Shown here in pieces: positions 1-14,724 of a stretch of 14,724 bases of DNA. The notes below the pieces were generated by a model, which saw nothing but the letters and a program-made list of their open reading frames with translations, made no database searches and was not told the DNA's origin. Source of the stretch: Polyangia bacterium (GTDB lineage Bacteria > Myxococcota_A > Polyangia > Palsa-1104 > JAEUJZ01); the NCBI GenBank assembly GCA_044228505.1, contig JBGAUT010000014.1, positions 1-14,724 of the forward strand, read 5' to 3'. Within the stretch, counting starts at the first letter, position 1, and each line of letters starts with the position of its first letter. A program made the translations under genes and the position numbers.

Positions 1-1087
1 GCCCACCAGCGCCAGCGCCCCGAGCATCACATCAATGATCGACTTGGGATCCTCAATGCGCAGAATATGATCGGGCGAAATGACGCTGGCCCACTGCCTA
101 ATAATCACGTCGTCCTGGTAGTTGGCGTAAAGAGGATTCTCTGTGGCAGCCTGCGCATCTTCCGCAGGGCGTTGGCTTGGATCGTAGGTGAACTCGGCGA
201 TGGGAACATCGCTGTTTGGACCGGTCTCGCCTTTTTGGGAAATGACACCCTCGAAGCGCTGAATGTTGCCGTTCACTTCTAGCTCGACCCGATAGGACGT
301 CGGCGCAAGGTCGGTCTCGTGGAACCGATAGTTCTGGACGTAGACGCGATACTTGCCGGTGGGAGCAGTGCCCTTTCGCCACCGGACGTTTTCGACGGGC
401 TTGGTCGTCTCACCACGCACATTACGATCGACGTCCAGCTCACCGCGACAGACGGACTGCTTGTGTCCATAAAAGATGTGCTCGCCCGATGGCGTCACAA
501 CGTGAAGATCGAGGTCGTTGCGGTTGTCCCAGATCAGGCTGGCACGAACGTCGACCCCTTCGTAGACACCGCCCGCTGCTTCGACGCGCTTTTTGATCTC
601 GGCATCAATGTCCCGACGGCGCTCCGCCATCGACTTCTGCGGATAGATGAAAAAGACGTGATACTTCTGCGCAAGCTCCGCAAAAATCGCGCCCGAATCG
701 AGATCGTGGCGCTCCTCCCGACCGAGGACACGGCGGATCTGTTCGCGACTCACCTTGGGATAGAAGCCTTCGTCACCAAGGAAAAAGAAGTAGCCCTTTT
801 TGCCGTTTCGCAAGCAGTCCAGCTTCGAGTGGCGAGCGTAAAAGTAGGCCGCTAGCTCGTAGGACTCTTGGCCAGTGCCACCGCCGCCCTCTTCGATCCA
901 AATCTTCGATAGCACTTCGTCGAGCCGGTTGTCCGCCTCGAACTGTCCCACTTGCAGCGGTGCCTGATCCGAGTTCGCATCCCCAATGGCGGCAAAACTA
1001 ACCGCCGGACCGGAGACGTAGTTTTTCATAATGATCTGCCCGATAAACATCGGCAGCTTGTCGTAGAAGCTGCTGATCAAGGCCATC
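1..1087 (-). CDS. Hypothetical protein, 3'-truncated at the window edge (C-terminus lies beyond coordinate 1). It has a Gly-rich EEGGGGTGQESYELAAYFYARH segment and a beta-rich region (SLIWDNRNDLDLHVVTPSGEHIFYGH...YRVYVQNYRF...YRVELEVNGN) that I can only loosely liken to vWA-associated / DUF2135 (YfaP)-type domains.
   Basis: I hand-translated the reverse complement of 1..1100 and found one uninterrupted reading frame from about 1097 to the window edge at coordinate 1. It has no stop in the window, so it is absent from the M-to-stop ORF track. An in-frame TGA at about 1098-1100 closes the frame upstream. Candidate ATG starts are rc 1087 (MALISS...), 1050 and 1029 (MKNYVSG...). I saw no clear SD for any of them, so the start is uncertain. 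All plus-strand ORFs here (for example 319..855) look like antisense shadows. Confidence 0.55.
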
Positions 1088-1122
1088 GCAGCGATGGCAG
1101 AGGCCAGGTGCGGCTGGGCGTG

Positions 1123-1140
1123 TGGTCCTTTTGTGGTCCC
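1123..1140. promoter_or_regulatory. Direct-repeat motif GTGGTCC-TTTT-GTGGTCC (copy A), lying 36-53 bp upstream of the preferred start (1087) of the minus-strand gene.
   Basis: A second copy at 4342-4359 (GTGGTCC-TTTG-GTGGTCC) is nearly identical, 17 of 18 bp. Both copies sit at the 5' end of minus-strand genes. On the coding strand the motif reads GGACCAC-N4-GGACCAC. Confidence 0.35.
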
Positions 1141-1404
1141 TCCGCACTTTCAATCCACAGTTCCGAACAGACGTGGGGCAGAGGCCTCTCCGTGTAACGA
1201 CTAGGAGCCAGTTTTCAGACGGAGAGATGCTCCTCTGTGCCCCAACGGAGGAGACCCAAACACGGCACGGTGTGGGTCAGAAATTCAGCCTGGAATTGCT
1301 CCTTGATGGACCGGAAGCGAACGCGATGGAGTACGGCCATCTAGTCATCCGAGCAGGATCGGCCCCCCATGATCTAGCGGTGGTCCATCGTCTGCGAAGT
1401 TTCG

Positions 1405-1410
1405 TATAAT
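1405..1410 (+). promoter_or_regulatory. TATAAT -10-like hexamer 6 nt upstream of the GTG start at 1417, compatible with a leaderless or very short-leader transcript.
   Basis: The hexamer is an exact TATAAT. There is no SD between it and the GTG. I could not pick out a -35 with confidence. Confidence 0.2.
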
Positions 1411-1416
1411 GATGCG

Positions 1417-2100
1417 GTGAAGCGGACAAACACGCGTCTTGGTGGTTTGGGGATCCTTGCGCTGGTCCTTGTGGGGCCAGGTCCGGTTCAGGCCGGCGAT
1501 CGTGGTCCCGAGTTTCCGTCGCTACCCTCGGCAACCGCGCTGTCGTTTTACCAGAAGCTGACCGGCATCATGCCAGGTGCGCGCAAAGATCTGCGCTGGA
1601 CCCTCAGCTTCGTCGGCGGTCAACCCCGCCTGTCTGTGCAGACGCGCAACTGCCCGGGGTCCAGCCAGGAGCAAGGAGCGGCTGTGCCAAGCTGCAAAGA
1701 GCCCTTCGGCAAGCCGGTGGTGTCGTACGAAGGCAAGCTGATTCAGCGGCCCTACGGCGTTGAGCTGCGGCTATCAAGAGAGGCACCGGCAGAGGACTAT
1801 CCGTCGGGGATGAACTTGACTTGCTTGCGCACCGTGGTTGGAGTGCTGCCGCCCGGTGCCTCGCTTGGGATGGGGGATGCCTGCAAAGGCGACGGGCCAC
1901 CGCCGCGCTGGCAGCCGGGGGCGACCAAGGATGTCGGGCTGTGGCTGTGCAGCCTGCAGAATGAGAATGGGGAACCGTGGTCCGGCTCTCGTTCGGTGGG
2001 GCCGCTGGCCTTTGCACCGAAGGCAGGCGTCGAGTGGCTCTTCGTCAACAACGACTGCGCGGGCCAAGAGGGCGCATATCGTGCGCTGCCGGGCCCGTAG
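1417..2100 (+). CDS. Secreted hypothetical protein, 227 aa, with an N-terminal signal peptide and six Cys residues.
   Basis: GTG is the first start codon after the in-frame TAG at 1375-1377. The N-terminus MKRTNTRLGGLGILALVLVGPGPVQA|GD has the n-, h- and c-regions of a Sec signal peptide. Third-position GC is high, consistent with coding. The overlapping minus-strand ORFs 1604..2017 and 1774..2334 have no such features. Confidence 0.5.
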   Translation: MKRTNTRLGGLGILALVLVGPGPVQAGDRGPEFPSLPSATALSFYQKLTGIMPGARKDLRWTLSFVGGQPRLSVQTRNCPGSSQEQGAAVPSCKEPFGKPVVSYEGKLIQRPYGVELRLSREAPAEDYPSGMNLTCLRTVVGVLPPGASLGMGDACKGDGPPPRWQPGATKDVGLWLCSLQNENGEPWSGSRSVGPLAFAPKAGVEWLFVNNDCAGQEGAYRALPGP

Positions 2101-2528
2101 GCGGCTACGTATCGACCGTTCGCGCTGTGTCGTCAAGGCTCTGGAAGCATTGGCATAGTCCGAACAAACGGACTGGAACGCTGTCTTCCCAGGGGCCGAG
2201 TCAGTTGTACCTGACCGGGCCCGCTTGTGTATCCGGCGAACCCGGGTGCAGCCCGTCTGACCTATTTTTATGAGGCATTGTTGGATACCGTGGAGTTTCT
2301 GGAAAATGAATGATACAAGTTCCGCACCAGACATCAGCTACCATGGCTGAGCCAATCATAGAGAAGTAAGCGTACGTGACGCACTCGTGAAATCAGTTAA
2401 AAAATGCTATTTTACTACACTGTAAACTTGCAGTACGATCAACAAACGCGGGAGAGTCTGGGCTGGCTTCCGTATTTGGCAATGCCGACAGCTCACCGAT
2501 CGTTTTTGTCGTATGGAGAAGTGTGATC

Positions 2529-2969
2529 ATGCATAAACTGCTCAGGGTATTTCTCATCATACAGACGCTGTTTCTCGGTATCACGGCGGTCTTGGGCGGG
2601 TTGGCCCTGGTCACTGGATGGAACTCACCACCGCTTTCGGAATTGAACGGGTCAGTATTCAAAGATTTCACCATTCCGGGAATTTCGCTATTTTTGATTG
2701 TTGGCGGCAGCGGGTTCTGCGCTGCGGTGTCGCTCTTTCGAAAGAGTCAATTAGCCAACGTGTTTTCAATCGCCGCCGGAGCGGTGATTATGTTTTTCGA
2801 ATTTGTTGAAGTGCTTACCATCGGATCCCCTCCCGGTGCTGCAAGGAATCTTCAGATTGTATATTTTGGGCTCGGATTTATCATCGTTATAACGGCGCTT
2901 GCGGTACGGTTCATGGAAATCACCGCAAGCCATACCAGCGCGAACACGACCTCGTCTTTCAAAGACTGA
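2529..2969 (+). CDS. Small integral membrane protein, about 146 aa, with about 4 predicted TM helices. Function unknown.
   Basis: The ATG at 2529 is preceded by GGAGAAG (2513-2519) at SD spacing. The ORF-track start at GTG 2523 is less likely. Four hydrophobic stretches are LRVFLIIQTLFLGITAVLGGLALV, GISLFLIVGGSGFCAAVSLF, VFSIAAGAVIMFFEFVEVL and IVYFGLGFIIVITALAV. The gene lies in a visibly lower-GC stretch than its neighbours. Confidence 0.55.
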   Translation: MHKLLRVFLIIQTLFLGITAVLGGLALVTGWNSPPLSELNGSVFKDFTIPGISLFLIVGGSGFCAAVSLFRKSQLANVFSIAAGAVIMFFEFVEVLTIGSPPGAARNLQIVYFGLGFIIVITALAVRFMEITASHTSANTTSSFKD

Positions 2970-3227
2970 GAGTATTCCGGAATCTCCTGATTCAGCAGCG
3001 CGACCGGCTCTGGCACCTTTGTGCGCCTGTCGCTGGAGCACTCCGATCGACGCAGCCTCGCGCAGCTCAGACACGTACTTCTATGATGAATGTGGAGAGA
3101 GTCAATGCGCTCTGCTTCAGCATCGACTGCAACTCTTCGTAAGTAGGCAGGACATAGCTCATCAGGAATCAAACGATGTCTACCGTGGCGGAGAATCCTG
3201 AAAACGGCAGCGACGGTTCGATGTTGG

Positions 3228-4337
3228 CTAGAGCTTCAGTTTCTTCATCTCTGAGGCCATGAAGCTGTCATTGATGTGAGCGTAGACCATGGTCATCTGA
3301 ATGTCGGCGTGACCCAGCAGCTTTTGCAGCGTGGGGATCGATCCGCCAGACTGCACAAACAGCGACGCGAAGCTGTGGCGAAGACAGTGCAGCGGGGCCT
3401 GTGGAACCCGGAGTCCGGCGGCGCGGTAGAGCGCAACCGGGCTGGGCGCTCGATACGCTTGATGCCAAGGCGCAGCATCGAAGTTGCGTTTCTTCGGGCT
3501 GAGAGGGCAGATGACGTCCTCCTTCGTCGCCGGACAGCGACTCTGCCAGTCTCGCAGCGAGGTGAACAGCTCATCAGGCATCGGCACGGTGCGCGGCTTT
3601 CCTGTCTTGGTTACCCCACGATAGGACTTGCTCACGGTGATGACCCCTCTCTCCAAGTCGCAGTCTCGCCATCGCAAGCCAAAAATCTCCCCGGCCCGTA
3701 ACCCTGCCAAGAGGCCGAGCCGCACTGCCACAGCGAAAACCGCCCCGCGCAAGTCATGCTTCGCCTGATCATCTGCTGCGTCGAGGAGTCTCCGGGCCTC
3801 TGCGAAGCTCAAGAACTCAAGCCGTGCTTCCTTGCGGGGTTTTCGAAGTCCCGCGAAGGGGTTTTGAACCACCAGGCACTGCTTGGTGGCCCACGCGAAC
3901 ACGCAGCTTATCTGTGACAAACGGACCGCAGCCGTGTTGGCTGCCCCACTACGGATGAGGACGTTCCGCAGCTTCTCAGCTTGTGCGGGGGAGAACTGGG
4001 ACGCGACCAACGCCCCGACCTGACGCAACACGGGACGAAGGTGGGTCCGGGCTTTGCGCGCCCAACGATCGTGATTGCGGATTTTCGGTGAGTCGTACTC
4101 GCTCAGAAAGCGCTCCGACAGATCGGCGATTGTCATCATCGCCAGCTCGGGCTCTCGCTCCGGCACTCCCAACTTGCCGCGTGCGATCCGGGCCTCGATC
4201 TCGATGAGCATCCGCTTCGCTTCTGCGTGGGTATGTTGTCCGCTCGCTCTCTGCTTGCGCTTTCCATCGACGTCGACGAAGCGCAGATACCACCCGACGA
4301 AGCGACCGCCCTTTACCTTCCTTATCACCTCACCCAT
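3228..4337 (-). CDS. Tyrosine-type site-specific recombinase / phage-type integrase.
   Basis: The C-terminal catalytic signature is present: GLRAGEIFGLRWRD (Arg box), HCLRHSFAS (H-x-x-R) and LLGHADIQMTMVYAHI (His...Tyr nucleophile). The N-terminal KGGRFVGWYLRFVDVDGKRKQRASG...AEAKRMLIEIEARIARG is the usual integrase N-terminal arm/SAM-like domain. My preferred start is ATG at rc 4337 (MGEVIRKVKGG...), with AAAGGA 9-14 nt upstream. The ORF track gives the longer GTG start at 4385. Confidence 0.9.
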   Translation of the reverse strand: MGEVIRKVKGGRFVGWYLRFVDVDGKRKQRASGQHTHAEAKRMLIEIEARIARGKLGVPEREPELAMMTIADLSERFLSEYDSPKIRNHDRWARKARTHLRPVLRQVGALVASQFSPAQAEKLRNVLIRSGAANTAAVRLSQISCVFAWATKQCLVVQNPFAGLRKPRKEARLEFLSFAEARRLLDAADDQAKHDLRGAVFAVAVRLGLLAGLRAGEIFGLRWRDCDLERGVITVSKSYRGVTKTGKPRTVPMPDELFTSLRDWQSRCPATKEDVICPLSPKKRNFDAAPWHQAYRAPSPVALYRAAGLRVPQAPLHCLRHSFASLFVQSGGSIPTLQKLLGHADIQMTMVYAHINDSFMASEMKKLKL

Positions 4338-4341
4338 TGCC

Positions 4342-4359
4342 GTGGTCCTTTGGTGGTCC
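4342..4359. promoter_or_regulatory. Direct-repeat motif GTGGTCC-TTTG-GTGGTCC (copy B). It overlaps the SD region and lies immediately 5' of the integrase start.
   Basis: The coding-strand reading is GGACCAC-CAAA-GGACCAC-GGCA-ATG. It is near-identical to copy A at 1123-1140. Confidence 0.35.
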
Positions 4360-4443
4360 ACCGCCCCGAAGGATTTCGCCGACACAGCCCAGCACGAGGC
4401 CTGTGTAAGCGTCCACCCACAGCGATAGAAACCAGTTAAATCA

Positions 4444-4459
4444 TTACATTTTTATGTAA
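4444..4459. promoter_or_regulatory. Perfect 16-bp palindrome TTACAT-TTTT-ATGTAA in an AT-rich spacer. It is a candidate operator or recombinase-binding site upstream of the integrase, or a weak terminator hairpin for the 77-aa ORF.
   Basis: The two 6-bp arms are exact reverse complements. The site lies 107 bp upstream of the int ATG and 10 bp downstream of the stop of ORF 4469..4702. It is embedded in the AT-rich sequence AACCAGTTAAATCATTACATTTTTATGTAACGCTAAATACTAG. Confidence 0.3.
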
Positions 4460-4468
4460 CGCTAAATA

Positions 4469-4702
4469 CTAGTCGTAGATGATACGGGTGTCGTCGCCGC
4501 GAGAGCGGGTGACGTCCATGGCGACCACGATCGGTGTGTCGTTCATGCACTCGCGAATCTTGCCGTTGGGATCGAGGTTCTGGTGCACGCCTCGCCGGGC
4601 CGCAGCCTCTCCAGCCGAGCCATAACCGCGATAGGTAAACACGTCGCGGTTGTTCGAGCGCGACTCAAGCGCAATGTCCTCATCGTAGTTGCCACCGCCC
4701 AT
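4469..4702 (-). CDS. Hypothetical small protein, 77 aa.
   Basis: The ATG start is preceded by a purine/G-rich SD-like AAAAGGGGGG about 6 nt upstream. Codon usage is GC3-rich and in line with the neighbouring genes. I recognise no family in MGGGNYDEDIALESRSNNRDVFTYRGYGSAGEAAARRG... Confidence 0.45.
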   Translation of the reverse strand: MGGGNYDEDIALESRSNNRDVFTYRGYGSAGEAAARRGVHQNLDPNGKIRECMNDTPIVVAMDVTRSRGDDTRIIYD

Positions 4703-4769
4703 GGGAGCCCCCCTTTTACTGGCCTGTCCGCCGATCTTATACCAGTTGGGGCGATGCCACGCGGGCCAG

Positions 4770-5279
4770 CTACTCGGCGTCGATCAGCGCCTGGACTGCC
4801 ACCGATAGATACCCCGCATAGCGGGCGCGAAAGGCCGGGTCTTTCCAGTCGTCCGAGGTGACTTTGCCACGGCACTCGGACGTGCCACACCGGCAATCCA
4901 TCTGAAATCCACCGTCTGCGTGATCGATTAGCACCGTGCCGTAGTCAAACGTCAGTTCGGCCCCAGCGGCGATGTCGGTGAGTGCCACGACCATGATCTG
5001 CCCCCGAATGCCGCAGTTCGGAGCGCACGAGTGATTGACGAAGTCGCCATCGCCTAGCTCGTCCTCGCCAATCGGTCCTAGCAAATAGCCCGGCCAGATC
5101 GAAATGGCGACCGCTTGCACCTGCGGCGACAGCTTCTGAAACGTCGCCACGTCGTAGACATGTCCGCCAAACAGCGCCACCGTCTCACCGGCCCGAATCG
5201 GCTCGATGGCGAACGTGCCACGGCCATCCACCTGGCTTTTGCGGGTTACGACTTTGGGGCAAAGGTAACTTAGCGACAT
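4770..5279 (-). CDS. SET-domain protein, 169 aa, a putative protein/amine lysine N-methyltransferase with a post-SET Cys cluster.
   Basis: Canonical SET motifs are present: the GxG region DGRGTFAIEPIRAGETV, FVNHSCAPNC (NHSCxPN), ELTFDYG (ELxFDY) and CRCGTSECRGK (post-SET cysteines). AAGGGA sits 5-6 nt upstream of the ATG. The gap to the upstream SET gene is 12 bp. Confidence 0.85.
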   Translation of the reverse strand: MSLSYLCPKVVTRKSQVDGRGTFAIEPIRAGETVALFGGHVYDVATFQKLSPQVQAVAISIWPGYLLGPIGEDELGDGDFVNHSCAPNCGIRGQIMVVALTDIAAGAELTFDYGTVLIDHADGGFQMDCRCGTSECRGKVTSDDWKDPAFRARYAGYLSVAVQALIDAE

Positions 5280-5291
5280 ACGGATCCCTTG

Positions 5292-5702
5292 TTAGGCCGA
5301 CTGAGTGGCGCTGACCTGTTTCAGAAAATGACCACCGCCTGCAAGTTCGTGATCAAAGACTCGATAATCGCAGGTCAGTTCCTCGCCCGCCTTGATATCA
5401 CGATTGGCACGAATCACGGCGGGTGGTGACTCGGTGGTATTCGGATGATCACTGTGATTCATGAACCTGCCATCATCACAGCTCAAGACCAAGCTGCCAG
5501 GGAGATCTTCAAATCCGTAGCCATATCTGGAAAGAAATGTACGAAATATCGGCGGCAGCAATTCGATCTGTTCTCTGGTAAAAACTCGCTCTGACGCATC
5601 ATTCCATTCCCAAACCAAGCACCCGGCAGGAATATCTTCCGCCGCGAATAGACCAATACCACCGTGCTGATCGGGTCCAAGATAGGTCTTTACTGTTAGC
5701 AT
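5292..5702 (-). CDS. SET-domain protein, 136 aa, the second SET paralog. It has no post-SET Cys cluster.
   Basis: SET motifs are the GxG region HGGIGLFAAEDIPAG, RFMNHSDHPNT (NHSxxPN) and GEELTCDYR (ELxxDY). GC looks lower than in the flanking NRPS-like gene. Confidence 0.8.
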   Translation of the reverse strand: MLTVKTYLGPDQHGGIGLFAAEDIPAGCLVWEWNDASERVFTREQIELLPPIFRTFLSRYGYGFEDLPGSLVLSCDDGRFMNHSDHPNTTESPPAVIRANRDIKAGEELTCDYRVFDHELAGGGHFLKQVSATQSA

Positions 5703-5731
5703 GTTAGCGGATCCACATCAAAGGAAACGAC

Positions 5732-8197
5732 TCAGTAGGAGCCCACTAGAGAAGGGTTTAGCTCTTTGGTGTAAAACACGGCTTCTTTATGCACTGCGGC
5801 GGCTGACAGCAGTATTTTTTGGCCGTTGTCCTCATACGTTGCATAGGACTGACTACTCGTCCGAACAAATCCAAGCATTTCTGCCGATAGTGCGGTTGCG
5901 CGATGCAGACATAAGGCACCAGCGTGACGATAACCGAGCGATTTGGCCATATCTAGAATACGGCGGTCCAGTTCGAACAGTAGCTCGGTGCCGTCGATAC
6001 CTGGTTTTGCCCCAGCAATCGCCATATCCAGCATTTCTCGCTCCAGGAGCTTCGGAACTCGCAGATCGTAGGGCTCAAAGAAGTACGCGAGAAATGTCTG
6101 ATAACGCACAAAGGCTTCGGATAGCTCGGCCGGTTCGAGCGGAACCGGCGTGATCCAGTCCCCAGCCAGGCTGAAGCCGACCAGCTCACCACTTGCGCCG
6201 TCGAGCGCCACCAGCGACAGCCCTTGTCCTCGGTAACGCGAAATCAGCGCCCGATAGAACGGCAACAGATCGACGGCCTGTAGCCGGAGGCTTTGGCACA
6301 CGGGCTCTGCGCTGACAAAGACCTCGCACGCAAAGTGAATCAAGGCCTCTTCCGAGACTTCAGTGGCAGGCACAATCCGATAGTTGGGTAACGCGCTGGG
6401 CGTAGGGATCGGCTCGCGACCGCTGAGCCACCGCCCAAGCTGAGCCACCGATGAATCCCGTAGCAGCGAAAGGGGTACCTGCGGCCCCCCCCGAGTGGCC
6501 AGCTTGGCCCCTAGCTCCGCCAAGGCCAGTGAGTCGCCCCCGAGCAGGCCGAGGCTGTCGTGCGGACCCACCGGATGGATGCCCAGGACTTCCGAAAACA
6601 GTGTAGCCAGCGACTGCTCGTCTGCATCGAGAGGGACCGTCTCCGAGGGTCGATTCGCCTCGATTCGCTGTGCGATCTCCACCAGCGCTCGCCGGTCGAT
6701 TTTGCCACTTGGAACCAGCGGCAGCTCGGCCAGCGCCATGAATCGCGACGGCACCATCGCCGCTGGTAACCGCTCGCTCGCCCGCTGACACAGCCGCTCA
6801 ACCCCCAGTTCCATCGGCGAGCAAAACAGCCACAAGCGCCGAACTTCGGGATCCGCCGGACTGGGAACCGCGACGGCTGCCACCATCCCGCCCGCAGGCA
6901 AGTCGCTCGACACGGCCTGCTCGATCTCCTCCAGCTCCATCCGGATGCCGCTGACTTTGACCTGATTGTCGACGCGGCCCAGGTAGTCGAGCTGTCCATC
7001 AGGCAAGCTGCACACGCGATCCCCAGTTCGGAACAATCGCTTGTCGCAGCGCGTTGGATGCGGAACGAAACGCAACCGGTCTTCCTCTGGACGTCGCCAA
7101 TAGCCCCGAGACAGCACGGGCCCCCCGACGTACAGCTCGCCCTCGACTCCTACCGGAACAGGCCGCCGCTGCTCATCCAGCACCAACAGCTCGGCACCGG
7201 TGATGGCAGAGCCAATCGGTACTCGGCCCTTCGGAATCGGCGTCTGCGGGGCAAACTCGGCACAGGTCACATCGGCGGATACCTCGGTGCTGCCGTACAG
7301 GTTAAGCAGCGTCGCCTGCGGATGGGCCTGTCGAAAGCGCTGTAGTAGCGCCGTACTCAGCGTCTCGCCACTGCTCACCCACAGCGAGAGGAGGGGCAGC
7401 CGCTCGCCGAGGTCAGGAAACACCCGCAGCAGCGTCGATAGCAGTGATGGCACCAGCGTGAGCCGGGTCACCCGATGGGCGGCCAACGTCGCCACTAAGC
7501 GGTGCAGATCCGTCACTTCCTCTGGCCGAATGATCGCGGTGGGCACACCTTGCAACAGCCCGCTGAACACCTCCGTCACCGAGTCCACGAAGTTGAGCGA
7601 GGATCGATGCGCGACCACGTCTCCGGGCACAAGCGGATACTGGGCGAAGCCCCAGCGCAAGCGCGTTGCCATCCCGACTTGGGTCACACAAACGCCCTTC
7701 GGTCGGCCCGTGCTGCCGGAGGTATACAGAAGGCACAAGAGGGCCTCAGCCCCGTCGCTCGGCATCTGCAGCGGTTCCGTAGAAAAAGCCGCCACTTCTG
7801 CGGAATCTACCGCCACGCCGGTCAGCGACGACCGCAGCGACAGGGCATCCTGGTTTGCCCCGCTCGTCAACATCACCTGGGCCCCGCAGTCCTCGGCGAT
7901 CCACTGCTGACGCTGCTGGGGATACGTCGGATCGATGGGCACATAGATCCCGCCGGCGAGCAGGATGCCGAGCAGCCCGATCGTCGACTCCAGGGATCGA
8001 GAAATCGCCAAACCAACCGGTGTTCCGCCGCCGACACCGCGACCACGCAGAGCCCGAGCCACTTGTGAGGCTCGCCCGAGGAGCTGCTCGTAGGTAAGAG
8101 ACTGCTCAGCGCAGCGGAGTGCCAGCGCTGTCGGATGGCGCTGCGCAACCGCTACAAACCATGCCGCCAAGTTCTCGTCTGATTGCGAGTTCTCCAT
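5732..8197 (-). CDS. Stand-alone NRPS-like protein of 821 aa: adenylation domain, peptidyl-carrier (thiolation) domain and a C-terminal roughly 210-aa GNAT-like domain (A-T-X). It has no condensation, thioesterase or reductase domain.
   Basis: A-domain core motifs are LTYEQL (A1), LLYTSGSTGRPKGV (A3), NFVDSVTEVF (A4), NLYGSTEVS (A5, Ser in place of Pro), LFRTGDRV...YLGRVDNQVKVSGIRMELEEIE (A7/A8) and LPLVPSGKIDRRAL (A10). The carrier motif is HDSLGLLGGDSLALAEL, with Ser556 as the putative Ppant site. The C-terminal 605-815 lacks HHxxxDG, GxSxG and Rossmann motifs but shows a GNAT-like pattern (see the domain feature). Confidence 0.9.
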   Translation of the reverse strand: MENSQSDENLAAWFVAVAQRHPTALALRCAEQSLTYEQLLGRASQVARALRGRGVGGGTPVGLAISRSLESTIGLLGILLAGGIYVPIDPTYPQQRQQWIAEDCGAQVMLTSGANQDALSLRSSLTGVAVDSAEVAAFSTEPLQMPSDGAEALLCLLYTSGSTGRPKGVCVTQVGMATRLRWGFAQYPLVPGDVVAHRSSLNFVDSVTEVFSGLLQGVPTAIIRPEEVTDLHRLVATLAAHRVTRLTLVPSLLSTLLRVFPDLGERLPLLSLWVSSGETLSTALLQRFRQAHPQATLLNLYGSTEVSADVTCAEFAPQTPIPKGRVPIGSAITGAELLVLDEQRRPVPVGVEGELYVGGPVLSRGYWRRPEEDRLRFVPHPTRCDKRLFRTGDRVCSLPDGQLDYLGRVDNQVKVSGIRMELEEIEQAVSSDLPAGGMVAAVAVPSPADPEVRRLWLFCSPMELGVERLCQRASERLPAAMVPSRFMALAELPLVPSGKIDRRALVEIAQRIEANRPSETVPLDADEQSLATLFSEVLGIHPVGPHDSLGLLGGDSLALAELGAKLATRGGPQVPLSLLRDSSVAQLGRWLSGREPIPTPSALPNYRIVPATEVSEEALIHFACEVFVSAEPVCQSLRLQAVDLLPFYRALISRYRGQGLSLVALDGASGELVGFSLAGDWITPVPLEPAELSEAFVRYQTFLAYFFEPYDLRVPKLLEREMLDMAIAGAKPGIDGTELLFELDRRILDMAKSLGYRHAGALCLHRATALSAEMLGFVRTSSQSYATYEDNGQKILLSAAAVHKEAVFYTKELNPSLVGSY
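5753..6385 (-). other. C-terminal domain X, about aa 605-815, a putative GNAT-fold acyl/aminoacyl-transferase domain.
   Basis: The pattern GAKPGIDGTELLFELDRRILDMAKSLGYRHAGALCLHRATALSAEMLGFVRT mirrors GNAT motif A (GxG then LL..L...A...G...I.L.V) and motif B (A..(L)..(K/M)..GF). It is clearly homologous to the C-terminal domain of the second A-T-X protein (YRFAMTICTHRVTAIQAERAGFTRL). I assign the fold from the motif pattern only. Confidence 0.4.
6428..6634 (-). other. Carrier-protein (T/PCP) domain, about aa 522-590.
   Basis: The motif is LGGDSL. The Ser codon lies at about 6530-6532. Boundaries are approximate. Confidence 0.75.
6683..8140 (-). other. Adenylation (AMP-binding) domain of the A-T-X protein 5732..8197, about aa 20-505.
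   Basis: Motifs A1 to A10 are listed under the CDS. Asp235 of the FDxS-equivalent (NFVDSV) is retained, implying an alpha-amino-acid-type substrate. Boundaries are approximate. Confidence 0.8.
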
Positions 8198-8352
8198 CTA
8201 GATACTACTATAACCATAATTGTTTTTATTCATAATTAATTCATCACACATTGCTGTTCCACGATTTATCCAGCAATGGAATTTAATCACAAAATTCAGA
8301 TCTCGATGCCGTACTCCAATTCGACCATCAACATGCCATTGCGCATGAGAGT
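8198..8352. promoter_or_regulatory. AT-rich spacer of 155 bp (about 30% GC) between the two NRPS-like paralogs. It is a candidate internal promoter or regulator site, and contains a TTCATAATT direct repeat and an AATTAATT palindrome.
   Basis: The sequence is TAGATACTACTATAACCATAATTGTTTTTATTCATAATTAATTCATCACACATTG... Its AT content is striking next to flanking genes that I estimate by eye at 60-65% GC. CATAATT occurs twice, about 17 bp apart. Confidence 0.3.
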
Positions 8353-10821
8353 TCATGTAAGCTCCTTAACAAACAGGATCGCCTCGCGATGGACATTGGC
8401 CAATGAGGCAAACACCCGCTGTCCTTCAAACTCGTACGTGGAATAATCACGCGATGAGAGCCGAGTAAACCCGGCCCGCTCGGCCTGGATCGCGGTCACG
8501 CGATGCGTGCAAATCGTCATAGCAAAGCGGTAGCCACGTTCCCGAGCCGCAGCCAATGATTGCAGCTCCAACTGGCGGGTCATCTCGTACCCAGGAACGC
8601 CTGGAATGGTGCCGGTCAAAGAAAGTTGCACCACTTCGCCTCGGCTGGGTTCCCCGTACTTTCGAATGAACTCGTGTTCCAGCTCGGTCAGCAGATCGAG
8701 GCTCGGCAGCAGCCGCACCGGTGCCGTCTCAACCGGGACGACCGCCAGGCTGCAGAAGTCATGCGCGAGACAGATACCCAACACCGGCTCGCTATCCTTT
8801 AACCGTGCCACAAACGACAGATCGTCCGCCCAGCTCGCCTGCACAATCGGAGTGACAAACGGCAGGTCTTCTTCCAGCGTCAGCGACGTGGCAGCGGTGA
8901 GCGGCTCACGATCAGCGTCCATCTCAGCCGCCAGTCGAATGGTCTGCTCCTCACTGAGCCCCGACGCAGACAACGGCAACAGCTCGTACGTAGGCTGTGG
9001 AGGCAGGTCCAATGCCGAATGTTCGTCGCCATCGATCCAGCTCGCGATGACATGCAGGGGCAGCCGAGCAACTTGCACGCTCTCCAGCCGGCCACCGTGG
9101 AAATCTCGAACGATTGCGACCAAAAGCTCCGCCAAAGCGAGCGAATTCCCGCCCAAATCGGCAAAGGAATCCTGGCGCGCAATCGGACTCACAGATAGCA
9201 AGGAAGAAAACAGCGCAGCCAGCCGCCGTTCGGTGCCGGATTGCGGTTCCTCCGATGGCTCCAGCACCCGAGTCGTGCGCTGCGCGAGTTCCGTCAAGGT
9301 GCGCCGATCGAGCTTGCCATTGGGCAAAAGCGGCAGGGTTGCGATGGCAAGGTACTCGGCCGGCAGCATGCTGATCGGTAGCAGTCGCTGCGCCGCAGCC
9401 TGCAGCATCGAGACCGGCAGGTCCGGTGGCGAAAAAAACGCAAAGAGTCGCCGCGACAGAGGCTGGTCGGGTTCTTCTTTGACCACCACCGCCAGCTCAC
9501 GGAGCAAAGGACACGCGCCGAGCAGCGTCCGCTCAATCTCCTCCAGCTCGACCCGCACCCCGCGCAGCTTCACTTGATGATCTTGCCGCCCCAGAAAATA
9601 CAACTGACCGCTGCTGTCCCGTCGCACGCGATCGCCGGTGCGAAACAGCCGCTCACCCGGATGGTGCGGATGGTTCACAAAGCGCCGTGTCTGCTCGGCC
9701 GGACGACGTAGATAGCCCTGCGCAAGCACGGGGCCACCAACGTACAATTCGCCGCTTTGGCCATCGGGCACGGGCTGCATCTGCTCGTCCAAGATCAGCA
9801 GCTCGGCACCAGCCATCGACGATCCGATCGGCACCCGGTCTTCGGGCAGCGGCACTCTAGGCGGAAAGACCGCACAAGTGACATCGGCCGTCACTTCTGT
9901 GCTGCCATAAATATTGAGCATCGTGGCCGACGGATGGGCAGCCCGAAACTGCCGAAGCAGCGAGAGCGGCAGCTCTTCTCCGCTACAGGTCCACAACGTA
10001 AGCTGAGGCAGGGCCTGTTCCAGGTTGGGCACCGTGCGCAACAGCGCCGCCAGCACCGATGGCACCACGGTCAGTCGTGACACCTCAAAGCGTCTGAGCG
10101 CCGCGATGAGTGTTCCCAAATCCCTGACTTCGCTCGGATACAGCAGTGCGGTCGGAACGCCGCTCAGCAGTCCCGAAAAAATCTCGGCCACCGAGTCCAC
10201 AAAGTTGAGCGACGAGCGGTGCGCCACCACCTCGACACCACCTTGCGCAAACGGGAAGGCGGTCACGCCCCAGCGCAGGCGGTTGAGGGTAGCGCGGTGA
10301 GTGCCACACACGCCGTTGGGCCGACCAGTGCTGCCCGACGTATACAGGACATACAGCAGATCGTCGACGCAAGTCTTGGTCGCAGCAAAGTCCGTTGGTG
10401 GTGCCTGTCCACGGAGTGCATCCAGATCGACCACCAAGCCAGCGAATTGCTGCAGCGGCGGCACCATGGAAGACGAGGTGACCACCACCGATACCTCCGA
10501 GTCGGCCAGCAGGAAGCGCTGACGCTCCGTCGGATAGTCGGGATCGATCGGGACGTAGGCCCCTCCGGCCAGCAGCGTGCCAAGCACCGCGGTAAGCGAC
10601 TCCACCGAGCGTGGCAGCACGATGCCAACCAAGACGCCGCGAGTGACGCCATGCCCACGCAGGGCTTGGGCAACCGCAATCGCTCGCCGAAGGAGCTCCC
10701 CGTAGGAAAGATTCCCCTTGGAAGAAAGGACCGCAACAGACTGTGGTTGGCTCGTCGCTATTCGAAGGAAATGCGTCGACAGGGAGATGTCTTCAGACAA
10801 AAACATAGGCGCGACGACCAT
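8353..10821 (-). CDS. Stand-alone NRPS-like protein of 822 aa, paralogous to 5732..8197, with the same A-T-X architecture (A domain, carrier domain, GNAT-like C-terminal domain).
   Basis: A-domain motifs are LSYGEL (A1), VLYTSGSTGRPNGV (A3), NFVDSVAEIF (A4), NIYGSTEVT (A5), LFRTGDRV...FLGRQDHQVKLRGVRVELEEIE (A7/A8) and LPLLPNGKLDRRTL (A10). The carrier motif is QDSFADLGGNSLALAEL, with Ser560. The C-terminal 612-820 is homologous to domain X of the other protein. An SD-like AAGGGA lies about 10 nt upstream of the ATG at 10821. Confidence 0.9.
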   Translation of the reverse strand: MVVAPMFLSEDISLSTHFLRIATSQPQSVAVLSSKGNLSYGELLRRAIAVAQALRGHGVTRGVLVGIVLPRSVESLTAVLGTLLAGGAYVPIDPDYPTERQRFLLADSEVSVVVTSSSMVPPLQQFAGLVVDLDALRGQAPPTDFAATKTCVDDLLYVLYTSGSTGRPNGVCGTHRATLNRLRWGVTAFPFAQGGVEVVAHRSSLNFVDSVAEIFSGLLSGVPTALLYPSEVRDLGTLIAALRRFEVSRLTVVPSVLAALLRTVPNLEQALPQLTLWTCSGEELPLSLLRQFRAAHPSATMLNIYGSTEVTADVTCAVFPPRVPLPEDRVPIGSSMAGAELLILDEQMQPVPDGQSGELYVGGPVLAQGYLRRPAEQTRRFVNHPHHPGERLFRTGDRVRRDSSGQLYFLGRQDHQVKLRGVRVELEEIERTLLGACPLLRELAVVVKEEPDQPLSRRLFAFFSPPDLPVSMLQAAAQRLLPISMLPAEYLAIATLPLLPNGKLDRRTLTELAQRTTRVLEPSEEPQSGTERRLAALFSSLLSVSPIARQDSFADLGGNSLALAELLVAIVRDFHGGRLESVQVARLPLHVIASWIDGDEHSALDLPPQPTYELLPLSASGLSEEQTIRLAAEMDADREPLTAATSLTLEEDLPFVTPIVQASWADDLSFVARLKDSEPVLGICLAHDFCSLAVVPVETAPVRLLPSLDLLTELEHEFIRKYGEPSRGEVVQLSLTGTIPGVPGYEMTRQLELQSLAAARERGYRFAMTICTHRVTAIQAERAGFTRLSSRDYSTYEFEGQRVFASLANVHREAILFVKELT
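8362..8988 (-). other. C-terminal domain X, about aa 612-820, a putative GNAT-fold transferase domain.
   Basis: TGTIPGVPGYEMTRQLELQSLAAARERGYRFAMTICTHRVTAIQAERAGFTRL aligns with GNAT motifs A and B and with domain X of the paralog. Confidence 0.4.
9037..9249 (-). other. Carrier-protein (T/PCP) domain, about aa 525-595.
   Basis: The motif is LGGNSL, a variant of GGHSL/GGDSL. Boundaries are approximate. Confidence 0.7.
9292..10749 (-). other. Adenylation domain of the A-T-X protein 8353..10821, about aa 25-510.
   Basis: See the CDS entry. The FDxS-equivalent NFVDSVAEIF shares D-S-x-x-E with the paralog. Boundaries are approximate. Confidence 0.8.
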
Positions 10822-10959
10822 CCAGGTTTTCCCTTTGTTGCCGAGAGTTGGCTCTGAACAAGGACAAGGAAGGTAGGGACACCTTGGGTATCCGAATCTG
10901 GAAGCGACCAGGACGCATGTTCTGCCAAAATTTTCGCTAGGTTGCGCCGATTAGACAAC

Positions 10960-12234
10960 TTAAATCTCGACCTGTTTTAGCTCGCGAACCCGTCGAACAC
11001 CGTAGAGCAAACACAGCAGGATCGCCGCCCCGACCACGTTTAGCACGGCGTCGGTCGTGTACAGCGCTCGCAGTCCGTGACGCGCATAGACATGCGTATC
11101 GAGCGACAGCACATACATCTGGGCAATACTAGAAAACGCATAGAAGATCGAATACTGCGTCGAAGATGAATGACTTGATTTACTAATCAATTCAAACACC
11201 ATAGCTGAACAAGCCGCAATCGAGACACCCTGCATCACATCGTATACAATCGAGCCGATCGCATAGACAGATGGAGAAATTGGCATCACGGCCCAATATG
11301 TACCGACCATCGCCATAGCCACCGCAGAGATTATATATAGCGCACGACTATCGATTCGAAGGCAAAAGACACCACCAAGATAGACGCCAAGAAACGAAAG
11401 AAACCAACCAGCGAATCCATTGAGACTTACGGTCATCCATTCAGGGGCCTGATAATCTACCGCCAAGGCCGGTAAAAAGAAATTAAGAGCCATCGTGCTC
11501 GCAGGACAAATACACAAAACCAGACCCAGCCAGCCATCCCTTCCGGTCAGGGTCTGGCGAGCCTCCGCAACGAAAGCGCGAGCAATGACTCGCGGCTGGT
11601 GGCGCAAGCGCTCCGGTTCGGGAATAACCAGCGCCGCCAGGGCTGGCACAATGATGAGCGAGCCACTCACCAGCGCGAGCGTTGAGACGGAGCAGCGCTG
11701 CGTCAACACCAACATCAGCGTCGCACCAACCGAGCCACCGACTTGTATGCCCAAGTTGAGCAAGTTAGAGGCCTTGAGTCGACCGGCGCGATCCAGCGTG
11801 GTGGCAGCCAGTCCGCCAAAACAGCTCGTCGCCAACCCATATTGCATCTGCGCAACCAGAATCAGCGCATAAAAGAGATTCTCATGATTTCGCGTAATAA
11901 GGAACAATGCGATGATAATAGAGAATGCACAAGCCAAAGACATCCAAACAAACCACGATTTTCTTTTGATCCACAAATCCGTAATCGGATTACAGAACGG
12001 CTGTATAATATAAGGAAAGACGGAAGCCGTACTATACCAACCAATGGCCTCGATCGAGAGACCGAATTTACGCATCAAAAATGGCATCTCACTCAAGAAA
12101 AAGGAACCGGCCATTCCTAGCGAGAGCGCAATAATAAAATAGGGTAGAGCCGCATATCCGGACAGAGAATGCTCGATGGGCACTGGCTCGGTCAGACCGT
12201 CGCCCGCGAGATTGCGATGCAAGGCCGACTCCAT
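10960..12234 (-). CDS. MFS-type transporter with 12 predicted TM helices, a possible exporter for the product of the adjacent enzymes.
   Basis: The protein is 424-425 aa with about 12 hydrophobic segments. A cytoplasmic-loop motif after TM2, NPITDLWIKRKSW, resembles the MFS G-x-L-x-D-R/K-x-G-R/K-R/K loop. The start is ATG at rc 12234, and the track's TTG at 12237 is the alternative. GC looks lower than in the NRPS-like genes. Confidence 0.75.
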   Translation of the reverse strand: MESALHRNLAGDGLTEPVPIEHSLSGYAALPYFIIALSLGMAGSFFLSEMPFLMRKFGLSIEAIGWYSTASVFPYIIQPFCNPITDLWIKRKSWFVWMSLACAFSIIIALFLITRNHENLFYALILVAQMQYGLATSCFGGLAATTLDRAGRLKASNLLNLGIQVGGSVGATLMLVLTQRCSVSTLALVSGSLIIVPALAALVIPEPERLRHQPRVIARAFVAEARQTLTGRDGWLGLVLCICPASTMALNFFLPALAVDYQAPEWMTVSLNGFAGWFLSFLGVYLGGVFCLRIDSRALYIISAVAMAMVGTYWAVMPISPSVYAIGSIVYDVMQGVSIAACSAMVFELISKSSHSSSTQYSIFYAFSSIAQMYVLSLDTHVYARHGLRALYTTDAVLNVVGAAILLCLLYGVRRVRELKQVEI

Positions 12235-12402
12235 CAACGCGCCTGTCCGCTTGACCGCGAGCTACCGTTCATCAGCCTCTTTTTGTTCATCCGATCCACA
12301 TCTTTTCCATATGTTACCAAAGTCTTCGGCGACTCGATCGCACGCCCCAACCGGAAGAATCGCAGGAACGAAGCTCGCCAAGCGGCGGCGGCTCGGGGCT
12401 TC

Positions 12403-13461
12403 CTACTTGGATGTGCCAGAACCAACGAAGGCGGGGTCTTCGAGTGCCAGCGGGGTACAGTTCAGCGGGGCCACAAGTGGATTGCAGCGAGCGGGCTGGC
12501 CGGTGGGAACCTCAAAGCGATAGGAAAACTTACTCGTCGGTTCTGGAAAGTCGGTACTGATGAAGTGGGCCGCGCTCAGAAGGGCCGATTGCCCTCGGGA
12601 GATGTCTGCTAGGCGAGCTTCTTGGGTATCAGCGTCGGCACGAGTCCGCACGAGAAAGTGACTCTGCACTGCTTTCTGGATCTGCGCTTGGTCGGCCACG
12701 CTTTTTGGATTGTTGAGGACCGACACCGCCCCAAACGGATCTTCCGGCGCAGAGTCCACAAACAGCAGCCTTCCTTGCAGATCCTTTTTGTTGTGGGTGT
12801 ACGCAGTCCGCACCGGGCCCGTGGTGTCGAACGCAAAGAGCACTCTGCCCCGCAGCCGACCGAGCACCGGCCAGCCGCGCTCACGAAGCGCATCACGGAG
12901 CGTAGCCGATTCCCCCTGAACTTCCGCAGGAGTGATCACCCGTTGCCGTGGGAAGGCCGTCAGGATCTCGGCCTCCAGGTGCCCAAAGAAGCTCTCTAGT
13001 TCATCAGCGGGTGTGTCGTTTTTCGGTTCGATCTGAACGTAGATCGGGAGGTGTCCTGGATATGCATCCGAGAAACGTCGAATCTCTCGCAGGCAGTCGA
13101 GTAAGCGGGTGCAGCGCGTACCGGTGTCCACAAACGGAATGTGAACCACCGTCAATCCGTCCTGCGCATCAAAGGAGACATCCAGCTCCAGTTGACGGAT
13201 TTGCAAACGATCAAGCTGCTCGTAGATCGGAGCGTGCGTGTACTCCCACGCTTCAACGGAACCATCGTGGGTGTCGACGTGATAGCTATTGTGGGTACCC
13301 CGGACCTGAACGTGCTGGAGCTTGAGCAGGTCATCCAGCGGATACTTGAACGGCTTTCCGATTACGTCCGGCGGCACGTCTGAATCGCTACCGCTCGCGC
13401 CACAACCAGCACCGATCGTCAGCGCGACCAGCAGACCGATTCTAAGGAGCCCTCTACGCAT
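12403..13461 (-). CDS. Putative lipoprotein of 352 aa with a PLC-like phosphodiesterase motif (PI-PLC X-box-like HNSYH).
   Basis: The N-terminus MRRGLLRIGLLVALTIGAG|C fits a signal peptide plus lipobox ([LIV..][A/G][A/G]C). VRGTHNSYHVD resembles the catalytic-His region of the PI-PLC X domain, which is SSHNTY in eukaryotic PLCs. The rest of the protein has no family I can name. Confidence 0.5.
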   Translation of the reverse strand: MRRGLLRIGLLVALTIGAGCGASGSDSDVPPDVIGKPFKYPLDDLLKLQHVQVRGTHNSYHVDTHDGSVEAWEYTHAPIYEQLDRLQIRQLELDVSFDAQDGLTVVHIPFVDTGTRCTRLLDCLREIRRFSDAYPGHLPIYVQIEPKNDTPADELESFFGHLEAEILTAFPRQRVITPAEVQGESATLRDALRERGWPVLGRLRGRVLFAFDTTGPVRTAYTHNKKDLQGRLLFVDSAPEDPFGAVSVLNNPKSVADQAQIQKAVQSHFLVRTRADADTQEARLADISRGQSALLSAAHFISTDFPEPTSKFSYRFEVPTGQPARCNPLVAPLNCTPLALEDPAFVGSGTSK

Positions 13462-13521
13462 GCGCGGAGCCTACTACGAACGGCTCTACGTTGTATCTGG
13501 ATGTAGCGAGCGGTAGGACCG

Positions 13522-14724
13522 TTACATCTCCAGCGGCAGAAACCGAGCAGGACCGAAGACCTCGGCCCGCAGCTTCTTGAGCTGCTCGGCGACTTCCCAA
13601 GCATCCTGGGCTCGCTGCCGAGGACTATCGCGGATGAGGAACTGTAGGAATCGGGTAAATCGCTCATCGACCTGAGTCGGCACCGTTCCTTGTCGCACGT
13701 CGCCACCCAGCAGAAAGATCATCGTCTTGCCGAGAGAATACAGGTCGGACGCTGGCAGCGGCGGTTTGCGCGCCATCACCTCGGGAGGACTAAAGTCGGG
13801 ATTGTGCGCTCGAAAGCCCTGCCCGGTCTTTTCAGGTGCCACCACCGCATAGGTCCAGTCGATCACAAACACGTTGTGGTCTTCCGGACGCACCAGAATG
13901 TGGGCGGGCTCGACGTTGCCGTGAATGATGCCCTGCTGATGGGCAAAGCCCAGCGCGGACAGCGAGCGCGCCAAAATCCAGGCGACATGCTCGGCGTTGA
14001 GTCCATCCGGATAGCGATCCCGCACCATGTCTAGATCGTAGCCATCCAGATAGGCAAAGATGCTCCCCGCCTGTCCCGATGGTGCCATGAACTGATCGAT
14101 CAGCTGCGGCAAGTGTTTGCGCTGGGCACCCTCTTGGGATTGCAGCGTCCGCACGATCCGCGCCTCTTCCATCAGCAGGTCGCTGTCTTCCCGCTGCATC
14201 GCGATCTTGACCGTCACATCTTGCCCAGCCCTCGCACCCGATTGACACGATCCGCGATAGAGCATCGCCAGATCCCCTTGGGCCAAGATCCTCGTCACTC
14301 GATAACTGCCGCTCGGGGCGTTGACGGTAAAATCCACCTCTGAGTTTGGCGATGGTGTCGGGACACTGCGCAGCCGAGGAGGCGGCGGACGGACAGACGG
14401 AGTCTCTACATCGGACCCAGCGGCTTGGACGTCCGTCTCGACCGGAGGACGCGCACTCTCTAGCTCACGCACCGCTCGCTGATGCCATTCGTACAGCTTG
14501 CTTAGCAAATGACGGGCACTGTTCTGCGCGAGGCTGTTGCCGCCAAAGCGCTCGGGCCGCAGACGACGAACCAAAACCACATACTCTTCTTCGAGGAGCA
14601 CCAGCCGTTCATCGACACTGAGGTCTTGCAGTGCCATCGCTGGAAACACCTCCTGCGTCGAACGAGCCCCCGCCACGAGCGACTGAACCTCTGCCAGATC
14701 ATCGTGCAGCACGAACCATCCCCC
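13522..14724 (-). CDS. Ser/Thr-protein-kinase-like protein, probably 5'-truncated by the window end. Its catalytic motifs are degenerate, so it is a predicted pseudokinase or atypical kinase.
   Basis: Kinase subdomain landmarks are VTVKIA (VAIK Lys), LLMEEARIV (alphaC Glu), IIHGNVEPAHILV (catalytic loop, with HRD changed to HGN and Lys changed to Glu), VIDWTY (DFG changed to DWT, Asp kept), SPPEV (APE-like) and SDLYSLGK. The Gly-rich loop is degenerate (ILAQGDLAMLY). The frame is open from the GTG at 14712 to the window end, so the N-terminus may extend beyond 14724. Confidence 0.65.
   Translation of the reverse strand, partial: GGWFVLHDDLAEVQSLVAGARSTQEVFPAMALQDLSVDERLVLLEEEYVVLVRRLRPERFGGNSLAQNSARHLLSKLYEWHQRAVRELESARPPVETDVQAAGSDVETPSVRPPPPRLRSVPTPSPNSEVDFTVNAPSGSYRVTRILAQGDLAMLYRGSCQSGARAGQDVTVKIAMQREDSDLLMEEARIVRTLQSQEGAQRKHLPQLIDQFMAPSGQAGSIFAYLDGYDLDMVRDRYPDGLNAEHVAWILARSLSALGFAHQQGIIHGNVEPAHILVRPEDHNVFVIDWTYAVVAPEKTGQGFRAHNPDFSPPEVMARKPPLPASDLYSLGKTMIFLLGGDVRQGTVPTQVDERFTRFLQFLIRDSPRQRAQDAWEVAEQLKKLRAEVFGPARFLPLEM

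Follow-up and report, generated by a model that had tools for sequence, protein, structure and literature searches.

Insects use Ebony in pigmentation, in cuticle hardening, and in the recycling of histamine and dopamine. In nonribosomal peptide synthetases (NRPSs), terminal condensation (C) domains of the rhabdopeptide and bacillamide type release the product with free amines. Ebony is an NRPS-like enzyme that activates beta-alanine and couples it, via a carrier thioester, to dopamine or histamine (PMC6070697; PMC10510592), and a 2023 review files it under the eukaryotic NRPS-like proteins (PMC10510592). In the insect AANATs, the Glu of the DEPLN motif is the general base (PMC6070697). Two bacterial enzymes are also pertinent: SbzI of the altemicidin pathway, a GNAT that moves an acyl group from a carrier protein to an amine (PMC11685415), and BurB of Burkholderia, which has a SET domain and methylates free methionine as part of a thiotemplate pathway (PMC12542666). 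Here we analyze a stretch of 14,724 nt from a Polyangia bacterium of the Myxococcota (contig JBGAUT010000014.1, positions 1 to 14,724, called the window below), in which two tandem genes, A and B, encode proteins made of an adenylation (A) domain, a carrier (T) domain, and a terminal domain of ~210 residues, termed X. We propose, with a probability of about 0.7, that A and B are paralogous bacterial NRPS-like synthetases of the Ebony type whose products would be beta-alanyl amides.

Architecture of the tandem proteins and alignment with Ebony

Gene B (8353..10821, 822 aa) and gene A (5732..8197, 821 aa) both lie on the minus strand, and their products gave a single collinear, full-length BLASTP alignment with 366 identities in 831 positions (44%; E = 0), far beyond chance. 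By domain, the identity was 51% in the adenylation domain, 30% in T, and 31% in X. The adenylation domain of B covers approximately residues 21 to 514 (9280..10761, on the minus strand like every domain given here) and contains YTSGSTGRP (residues 160-168), NFVDSV (206-211), YGSTEV (305-310), FRTGDR (393-398), and PNGKLDRR (500-507); that of A covers approximately residues 16 to 510 (6668..8152), with YTSGSTGRP (158-166), NFVDSV (202-207), YGSTEV (301-306), FRTGDR (389-394), and PSGKIDRR (496-503). The carrier domain lies at 9031..9225 in B (PF00550, E 1e-5; LGGNSLA, residues 556-562, with Ser560 as the phosphopantetheine site) and at 6425..6613 in A (PF00550, E 1e-8; LGGDSLA, residues 552-558, with Ser556), and this serine was invariant across the family alignment (A3). 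X, an AANAT/Ebony-type GNAT domain by the analysis below, occupies residues 610 to 822 of B (8356..8994; REPL 638-641, LAHD 685-688, CTHRVT 771-776, VHREA 810-814) and residues 603 to 815 of A (5753..6391; AEPV 630-633, LAGD 677-680, CLHRAT 763-768, VHKEA 802-806). A first-pass annotation of this DNA had described two tandem paralogous A-T-X proteins, a reading borne out by both open reading frames (ORFs), which have precisely the limits that it gave, and had placed the terminal domains at residues 605 to 815 and 612 to 820, in agreement with the boundaries of X. The motifs that it quoted were present (VAHRSSLNFVDSV.E.FSGLL, LFRTGDRV, and the C-terminal HR.TA... string) with two corrections: B reads VLYTSGSTGRP and not LLYTSGSTGRP, and the gap from GQ to S in the C-terminal motif spans four residues, not three. 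B and A are separated by a spacer of 155 nt (8198-8352) that is markedly AT-rich (e.g. ...attaattatgaataaaaacaattatggttatagtagtatctag) and in which a simple scan found no consensus promoter or terminator, with no excess over shuffled sequence.

Pfam recognized AMP-binding and PP-binding domains in A and in B, and the NCBIfam model TIGR01733 ("amino acid adenylation domain") scored above its cut-off for both, while neither collection found a Condensation, Thioesterase, or reductase domain in either protein. The lack of a Condensation match indicates that X does not have the PF00668-type fold with HHxxxDG that marks the canonical NRPS condensation domain, and X itself gave no Pfam or NCBIfam match in A or B, even at E = 10. 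A full-length search retrieved a large family of ~800- to 820-aa proteins that cover 97 to 99% of B, including one identical to B (P0002), and local BLAST found X in 67 of the 120 proteins among the matches listed. The closest genomes were uncultured Myxococcales metagenome-assembled genomes (MAGs; 90%, 65%, and 60%) and a Nannocystis MAG (60%). A word-index protein search with the isolated X of A found one protein only, despite dozens of homologs in the same database, which is a limitation of that method and not a sign that X is rare. Stand-alone X homologs of ~215 aa also exist in the protein database.

Residues 64-821 of protein B formed a single collinear alignment with Drosophila Ebony that crosses all three domains (27% identity, E 5e-61), and a homolog from the cyanobacterium Scytonema (P0085) aligned with Ebony at 29% identity and E 4e-96; the Ebony query was 100% identical to the database entry P0264, "Ebony, Drosophila melanogaster". 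The order A-T-GNAT, with no C, thioesterase (TE), or reductase (R) domain, is the same in A, B, and Ebony, and the unusual adenylation motifs NFVDS and YGSTEV..DVT of Ebony recur in A and B. Together with the pocket frame and the structurally close end domain described below, A and B thus present the domain order, the collinear homology, the pocket frame, the carrier serine, and the end-domain fold of an Ebony-type enzyme. They differ from Ebony in being bacterial, in the low identity given above for B, in several pocket and active-site residues, and in being tandem paralogs linked to SET methyltransferase and MFS transporter genes. The first-pass annotation had spoken of a poorly described enzyme class, which was overstated, as the architecture is that of insect Ebony and the end domain of Ebony has been solved (6dym). 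Bacterial relatives of Ebony that share its three domains number in the hundreds; no bacterial Ebony-like enzyme was described in the literature searched, the coverage of which was incomplete, and within that literature the bacterial branch of the Ebony type appears undescribed.

Fold and active site of the terminal domain

Single-sequence searches of the PDB gave only a marginal insect AANAT-like match for the X domain of A (E 0.08) and nothing relevant for that of B. A profile built from 23 homologs (alignment A2) and searched against PDB sequences matched the Ebony C domain (6dym; E 3.7e-13), the polyamine acetyltransferase A654L of PBCV-1 (E 5.6e-13), and the insect AANAT Dat, which is the dopamine N-acetyltransferase of Drosophila (E 1e-10). 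An AlphaFold model of X (pLDDT 95) also ranked 6dym first in Foldseek, the Ebony end domain being its best or second-best structural match. By profile and predicted structure, X is an AANAT-like GNAT domain that stands where a condensation, thioesterase, or reductase domain would. The GNAT-like terminal domain of the first-pass annotation was therefore named correctly, although the FeeM and Fem families that it offered for comparison were not the closest structural relatives of X among the GNATs. The task assigned to X is logically that of a canonical NRPS C domain, which likewise releases its product by joining the acyl group held on the carrier to a free amine as an amide, but the C domain has an unrelated chloramphenicol-acetyltransferase-like fold.

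In the profile alignment, the Glu-Pro of X (REPL in B, AEPV in A) falls on E47-P48 of the Dat DEPLN motif, the invariant C161 of X on Dat C181, the nearly invariant T166 on Dat S186, and the invariant His201 on a Dat His. In the same alignment, the consensus of X has D-G-x-E-x-A where the canonical motif is R-x-x-G-x-G/A. Ebony has Ala-Asp where X has Glu-Pro, Asn for the Cys, and Gln for the His, and X does not carry the C-terminal active-site residue set of Ebony. Thr166 and Asp78 are common to X and Ebony; this Asp (D680 in A, D688 in B), which is absent from Dat, may hold the beta-amino group of the donor. By these residues X appears more AANAT-like than Ebony's own end domain, and A and B look like relatives of Ebony, not copies. 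X shares the AANAT-like GNAT fold and the DEPLN-type Glu with the insect AANATs (Dat/AANAT1, AANATL, and AgmNAT) and PBCV-1 A654L; those enzymes are free-standing and use acyl-CoA, whereas X follows a carrier domain in the same protein, and its acyl donor is presumably the loaded carrier arm.

That X retains the Glu, Cys, and His of the AANATs, all three lost from the condensation domain of Ebony, could also signify that X is an acetyl-CoA-dependent N-acetyltransferase that caps a carrier-bound amino acid or another substrate and is not a release domain. We judge this very improbable. Such a role would leave A and B without any release domain; X stands terminally after carriers, both in the NRPS-like proteins and in a KR-ACP-X protein, and is fused elsewhere to amine-producing decarboxylases; and the nearest full-length relative, Ebony, uses a carrier-bound acyl group as the donor. 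In an Ebony-type synthetase as proposed here, the adenylation domain would adenylate beta-alanine or a closely similar small beta- or omega-amino acid, and the carrier arm would be loaded with the acyl group as a thioester. X would then bind the carrier arm as a GNAT binds acyl-CoA, with a free primary amine in the acceptor pocket. The conserved Glu of (R/A)EP(L/V), as counterpart of the general base in the AANAT DEPLN(-type) motif, would deprotonate the amine, and attack of the amine on the thioester would free the beta-alanyl amide in one step.

The activated acid and the decarboxylase-linked relatives

The ten-residue pocket codes were VDTTVSLADK for A and VDATTSIADK for B, as read from an L-INS-i alignment in which GrsA-PheA reproduced its published code, DAWTIAAICK, at the canonical positions. 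The same alignment gave VDAVVSFGDK for Drosophila Ebony, VDWITSLGDK for the cyanobacterial homologs, and VDPTIS[LI]GDK for a sister family of ~770-aa proteins. Codes ending in "VTK", from a first automatic alignment and differing in the letters at 330/331, were rejected because of a gap shift after YGSTE and were replaced by the ungapped L-INS-i reading. The FVDSV motif of A and B has Val at 235 and Asp at 236, in the same register as Ebony, and the pocket frame of Val235/Asp236, Asp331, and Lys517 is common to all three proteins. Residue 239 is Thr in A and in a mosquito ortholog of Ebony (P0288, 60% identical to Ebony at full length and named "mycosubtilin synthase subunit C" at NCBI) and Ala in B and in fly Ebony.

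From an Asp235 thought to be retained in both proteins, the first-pass annotation had concluded that A and B probably activate alpha-amino acids. In the alignment with GrsA-PheA that Asp is at 236, so the assignment, the one adenylation-motif assignment that failed, was off by one residue; the conclusion drawn from it also falls, since Ebony, which activates beta-alanine, has the same Val235/Asp236 arrangement. The broader possibility that both enzymes activate alpha-amino acids, with the GNAT-like domain passing the aminoacyl group to an acceptor, would fit the TIGR01733 scores and the presence of an Asp in the A4 motif. It is nonetheless quite unlikely, in view of the register of Val235 and Asp236, which is that of the beta-alanine-specific Ebony, and of the PanD genes that flank members of the family.

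Those PanD genes were found in a tblastn survey, in which PanD directly followed the A-T-X gene in 13 of 13 cyanobacterial loci (L082 5790-12926, L084 4322-11077, L085 6531-12314, L010, L012, L014, L015, L017, L019, L021, L027, L032, and L055) and a pyridoxal phosphate (PLP)-dependent decarboxylase gene was near in most. The order in Scytonema hofmannii PCC 7110 (P0085) is SfmD-like heme peroxidase, PLP decarboxylase, MATE, A-T-X, and PanD; Microcoleus (P0078) has this order with an MFS gene, and Nostoc has MATE, a decarboxylase-A-T-X fusion (P0116), and PanD. The MFS or MATE gene of these cyanobacteria is in a position that matches the MFS gene of the window. In Bryobacteraceae and Terriglobia loci a decarboxylase gene directly precedes the A-T-X gene, and fusions join the functions in several arrangements: decarboxylase-A-T-X (P0017, P0101, and P0127 besides the Nostoc protein), decarboxylase-X (P0125 and P0199), X-decarboxylase (P0263), and KR-ACP-X (P0173). 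Several of these fusion proteins carry no annotation beyond "histidine decarboxylase". Because PanD makes beta-alanine and the decarboxylases make amines, the chemistry of the family would be the joining of beta-alanine to an amine, as in Ebony, and the content of the cyanobacterial clusters points to a beta-alanyl-(catechol)amine product and spells out a complete predicted pathway for it. The literature searched held no description of this cyanobacterial Ebony-like cluster and no characterized protein among the cyanobacterial homologs. The latter match the window proteins in A-T-X over 97 to 98% of their length with 37 to 41% identity (~39% for P0085) and have the same pocket frame; they differ in the adjoining genes, which are for PanD, PLP decarboxylase, heme peroxidase, and an exporter, in place of which the window has SET genes. 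The pocket frame and the PanD adjacency in these homologs together give moderately good, though indirect, support for beta-alanine, or a near analog, as the predicted acid of both A and B.

Several points weigh against reading A and B as beta-alanyl amide synthetases. Each window code departs from that of Ebony at 4 positions out of 10, and VDWVISLADK, which we take to be the canonical code for beta-alanine, found no confirmation in the literature searched and was not relied on. The window has neither a PanD nor a decarboxylase gene, none lies within ~8 kb in its myxobacterial relatives, and decarboxylase fusions and neighbors are confined to other branches, so that the window's own context points to neither the acid nor the amine. 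As X retains the Glu, Cys, and His that Ebony has lost, its chemistry may be nearer that of an acyl-CoA-using AANAT. Finally, the neighbor-joining trees cited below, one for the A-T part and one for X, have no support values, and all of our functional statements are drawn from homology and gene context.

The nearest relatives of the pair in the A-T part are the sister family just mentioned (P0029-P0115; ~770 aa, with a range of ~760 to 790 aa), which is 50 to 56% identical there and ends in a different domain of ~170 aa. That domain could not be linked to X by profile hidden Markov model or hhalign comparison and had no sequence match in the PDB. Its AlphaFold model (pLDDT 89.7) is a compact GNAT, with ArsN and SbzI among the best Foldseek matches, and by predicted fold "A-T-GNAT" would thus be a recurrent design in these bacteria. 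In Nannocystaceae ST9 (L087 1-15291) a sister gene lies just after VgrG/PAAR genes (type VI secretion), near SET and kinase genes. In the A-T tree, insect Ebony branches inside the bacterial family, beside P0155 and within one large clade that also includes the cyanobacterial group, a position compatible with inter-kingdom transfer.

Paralogous clades, SET genes, and a possible mobile island

The trees of A-T and of X, the latter covering the C-terminal domain by itself, both split A-type from B-type proteins, each clade having orthologs in several Myxococcota. The tandem pair is kept in L001, L002, L004, L005, and L006; L003 has a B-type gene and a SET gene, with no A-type gene within 8 kb downstream. 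In L001 (8070-10531) the ortholog of gene A is split into ORFs of 650 and 176 aa that overlap by ~20 nt, which is a frameshift, a pseudogene, or an assembly error. The separate conservation of the two clades indicates, as far as these sequence comparisons go, that the duplication is old. Because X is the most diverged domain besides, A and B probably serve different amine acceptors, or separate amino groups of a single acceptor, with an acid that would be the same or similar for both; the two different acceptors suggested by the first-pass annotation are thus plausible. As in the two successive aminoacylations that the annotation also raised, the two enzymes might instead act in series, the product of one being the acceptor of the other (beta-Ala-beta-Ala-amine), or each might acylate one end of a diamine or polyamine. 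Such cooperation is conceivable though doubtful: it is not distinguishable from two parallel reactions, and L003 has its B-type gene with no A-type gene in the downstream interval searched.

Two SET genes follow gene A on the minus strand. SET1 (5292..5702, 136 aa; PF00856, E 2e-15) begins 29 nt downstream of A, and SET2 (4770..5279, 169 aa; PF00856, E 2.5e-13), which has a post-SET CxCxxxxC motif, begins 12 nt downstream of SET1; both retain the NHS and ELxxDY motifs. The best PDB match of SET2 was the SET domain of MLL1 (E 3.6e-10), and BurB was matched with E 2e-4. In L001, L004, and L005 a SET2-type gene stands after the A-type gene, and SET1 is seemingly missing in L001. The arrangement B-SET-A-SET is frequent, as in Nannocystis and L004, where stop and start codons overlap or almost abut. 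Among the Myxococcota, at least 15 loci have SET genes next to A-T-X genes or to members of the sister family of ~770 aa (besides the window, L003, L004, L005/L083, L008, L009, L011, L013, L016, L018, L024, L025, L029/L087, L030, and L031); none of the cyanobacterial loci does. From this linkage SET1 and SET2 are probable pathway partners of the synthetases, and with BurB as a precedent a small-molecule role for them is a reasonable, if putative, assignment: they would be N-methyltransferases that act on the acid, the amine, or the product. The literature searched held nothing on SET proteins in combination with myxobacteria and NRPSs.

The order of events could also be reversed, with the SET enzymes acting before loading, so that the adenylation domains take up a pre-methylated cationic acid (N-methylated beta-alanine, beta-alanine betaine, or a sulfonium like dimethylsulfoniopropionate) and X couples this acid to an amine. 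The translational coupling of SET and synthetase genes in Myxococcota and the action of BurB on free methionine would suit this scheme, as would the lack of a nearby PanD gene and the residues at positions 239, 278, and 330, where the myxobacterial codes depart from those of the PanD-linked cyanobacterial proteins (299 and 322 vary too). We consider it unlikely, as Asp236 and Asp331 are kept exactly as in Ebony and SET2 is far closer to histone-type SET domains than to BurB by the E values above.

The MFS transporter gene (10960..12237, minus strand; PF07690, E 4e-26) lies 138 nt upstream of B, and an MFS gene adjoins the B-type gene in L001, L003, L004, and L006; by this conserved position its product is a probable exporter. 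Farther out, Pfam identified a tyrosine integrase (3228-4385), a phosphatidylinositol-specific phospholipase C (PI-PLC; 12403-13461), and a Ser/Thr kinase (13522-14712), all on the same strand as A and B, and the gene order of L001 is that of the window (kinase, PI-PLC, MFS, pair, SET, integrase). The GC content is 52 to 55% over the MFS and SET genes and 62 to 65% over the synthetase genes. This contrast and the flanking sets of integrase, kinase, and PI-PLC genes suggest a mobile, mosaic island. No tRNA gene was found in the window.

An island of this composition might be taken for a set of eukaryote-like effectors, in which the targets of the synthetases are proteins, perhaps beta-alanylated at lysines, and not small amines: the kinase, PI-PLC, two SET genes, and integrase flank the pair, L001 has the same set, the Nannocystis pair has a kinase and an integrase nearby, and the sister family adjoins VgrG/PAAR in ST9. 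We hold this to be highly improbable. All of the structural relatives of X with a known acceptor act on small amines, an MFS exporter gene is linked, and A and B showed neither a secretion signal nor an effector domain.

The beta-alanyl amide reading can be extended to the whole locus, though only tentatively. In this fuller scheme the Myxococcota would possess a cassette of an Ebony-type synthetase and a SET enzyme, duplicated as B-SET and A-SET on an integrase-bearing island, and would use it to make exported N-methylated, possibly quaternary, beta-alanyl amides. If that is true, then together with the PanD- and decarboxylase-bearing clusters of cyanobacteria the insect Ebony/AANAT system has a bacterial counterpart that is large, of diverse chemistry, and possibly ancestral to Ebony, and the family provides material for asking about the origin of the insect enzyme. 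The myxobacterial variant is distinct in its conserved tandem pair wired to SET-domain methyltransferases, and would be a second possible case, after BurB, of SET domains in natural-product chemistry. Both the myxobacterial and the cyanobacterial loci are targets in the search for new small amides.

The first part of the window (1-3200) contains several ORFs of 90 to 230 aa on both strands, none of which matched a Pfam family. In Nannocystis (L083 2670-5000) an excisionase-like HTH_17 gene, an integrase gene, and a kinase gene are near the synthetase pair.

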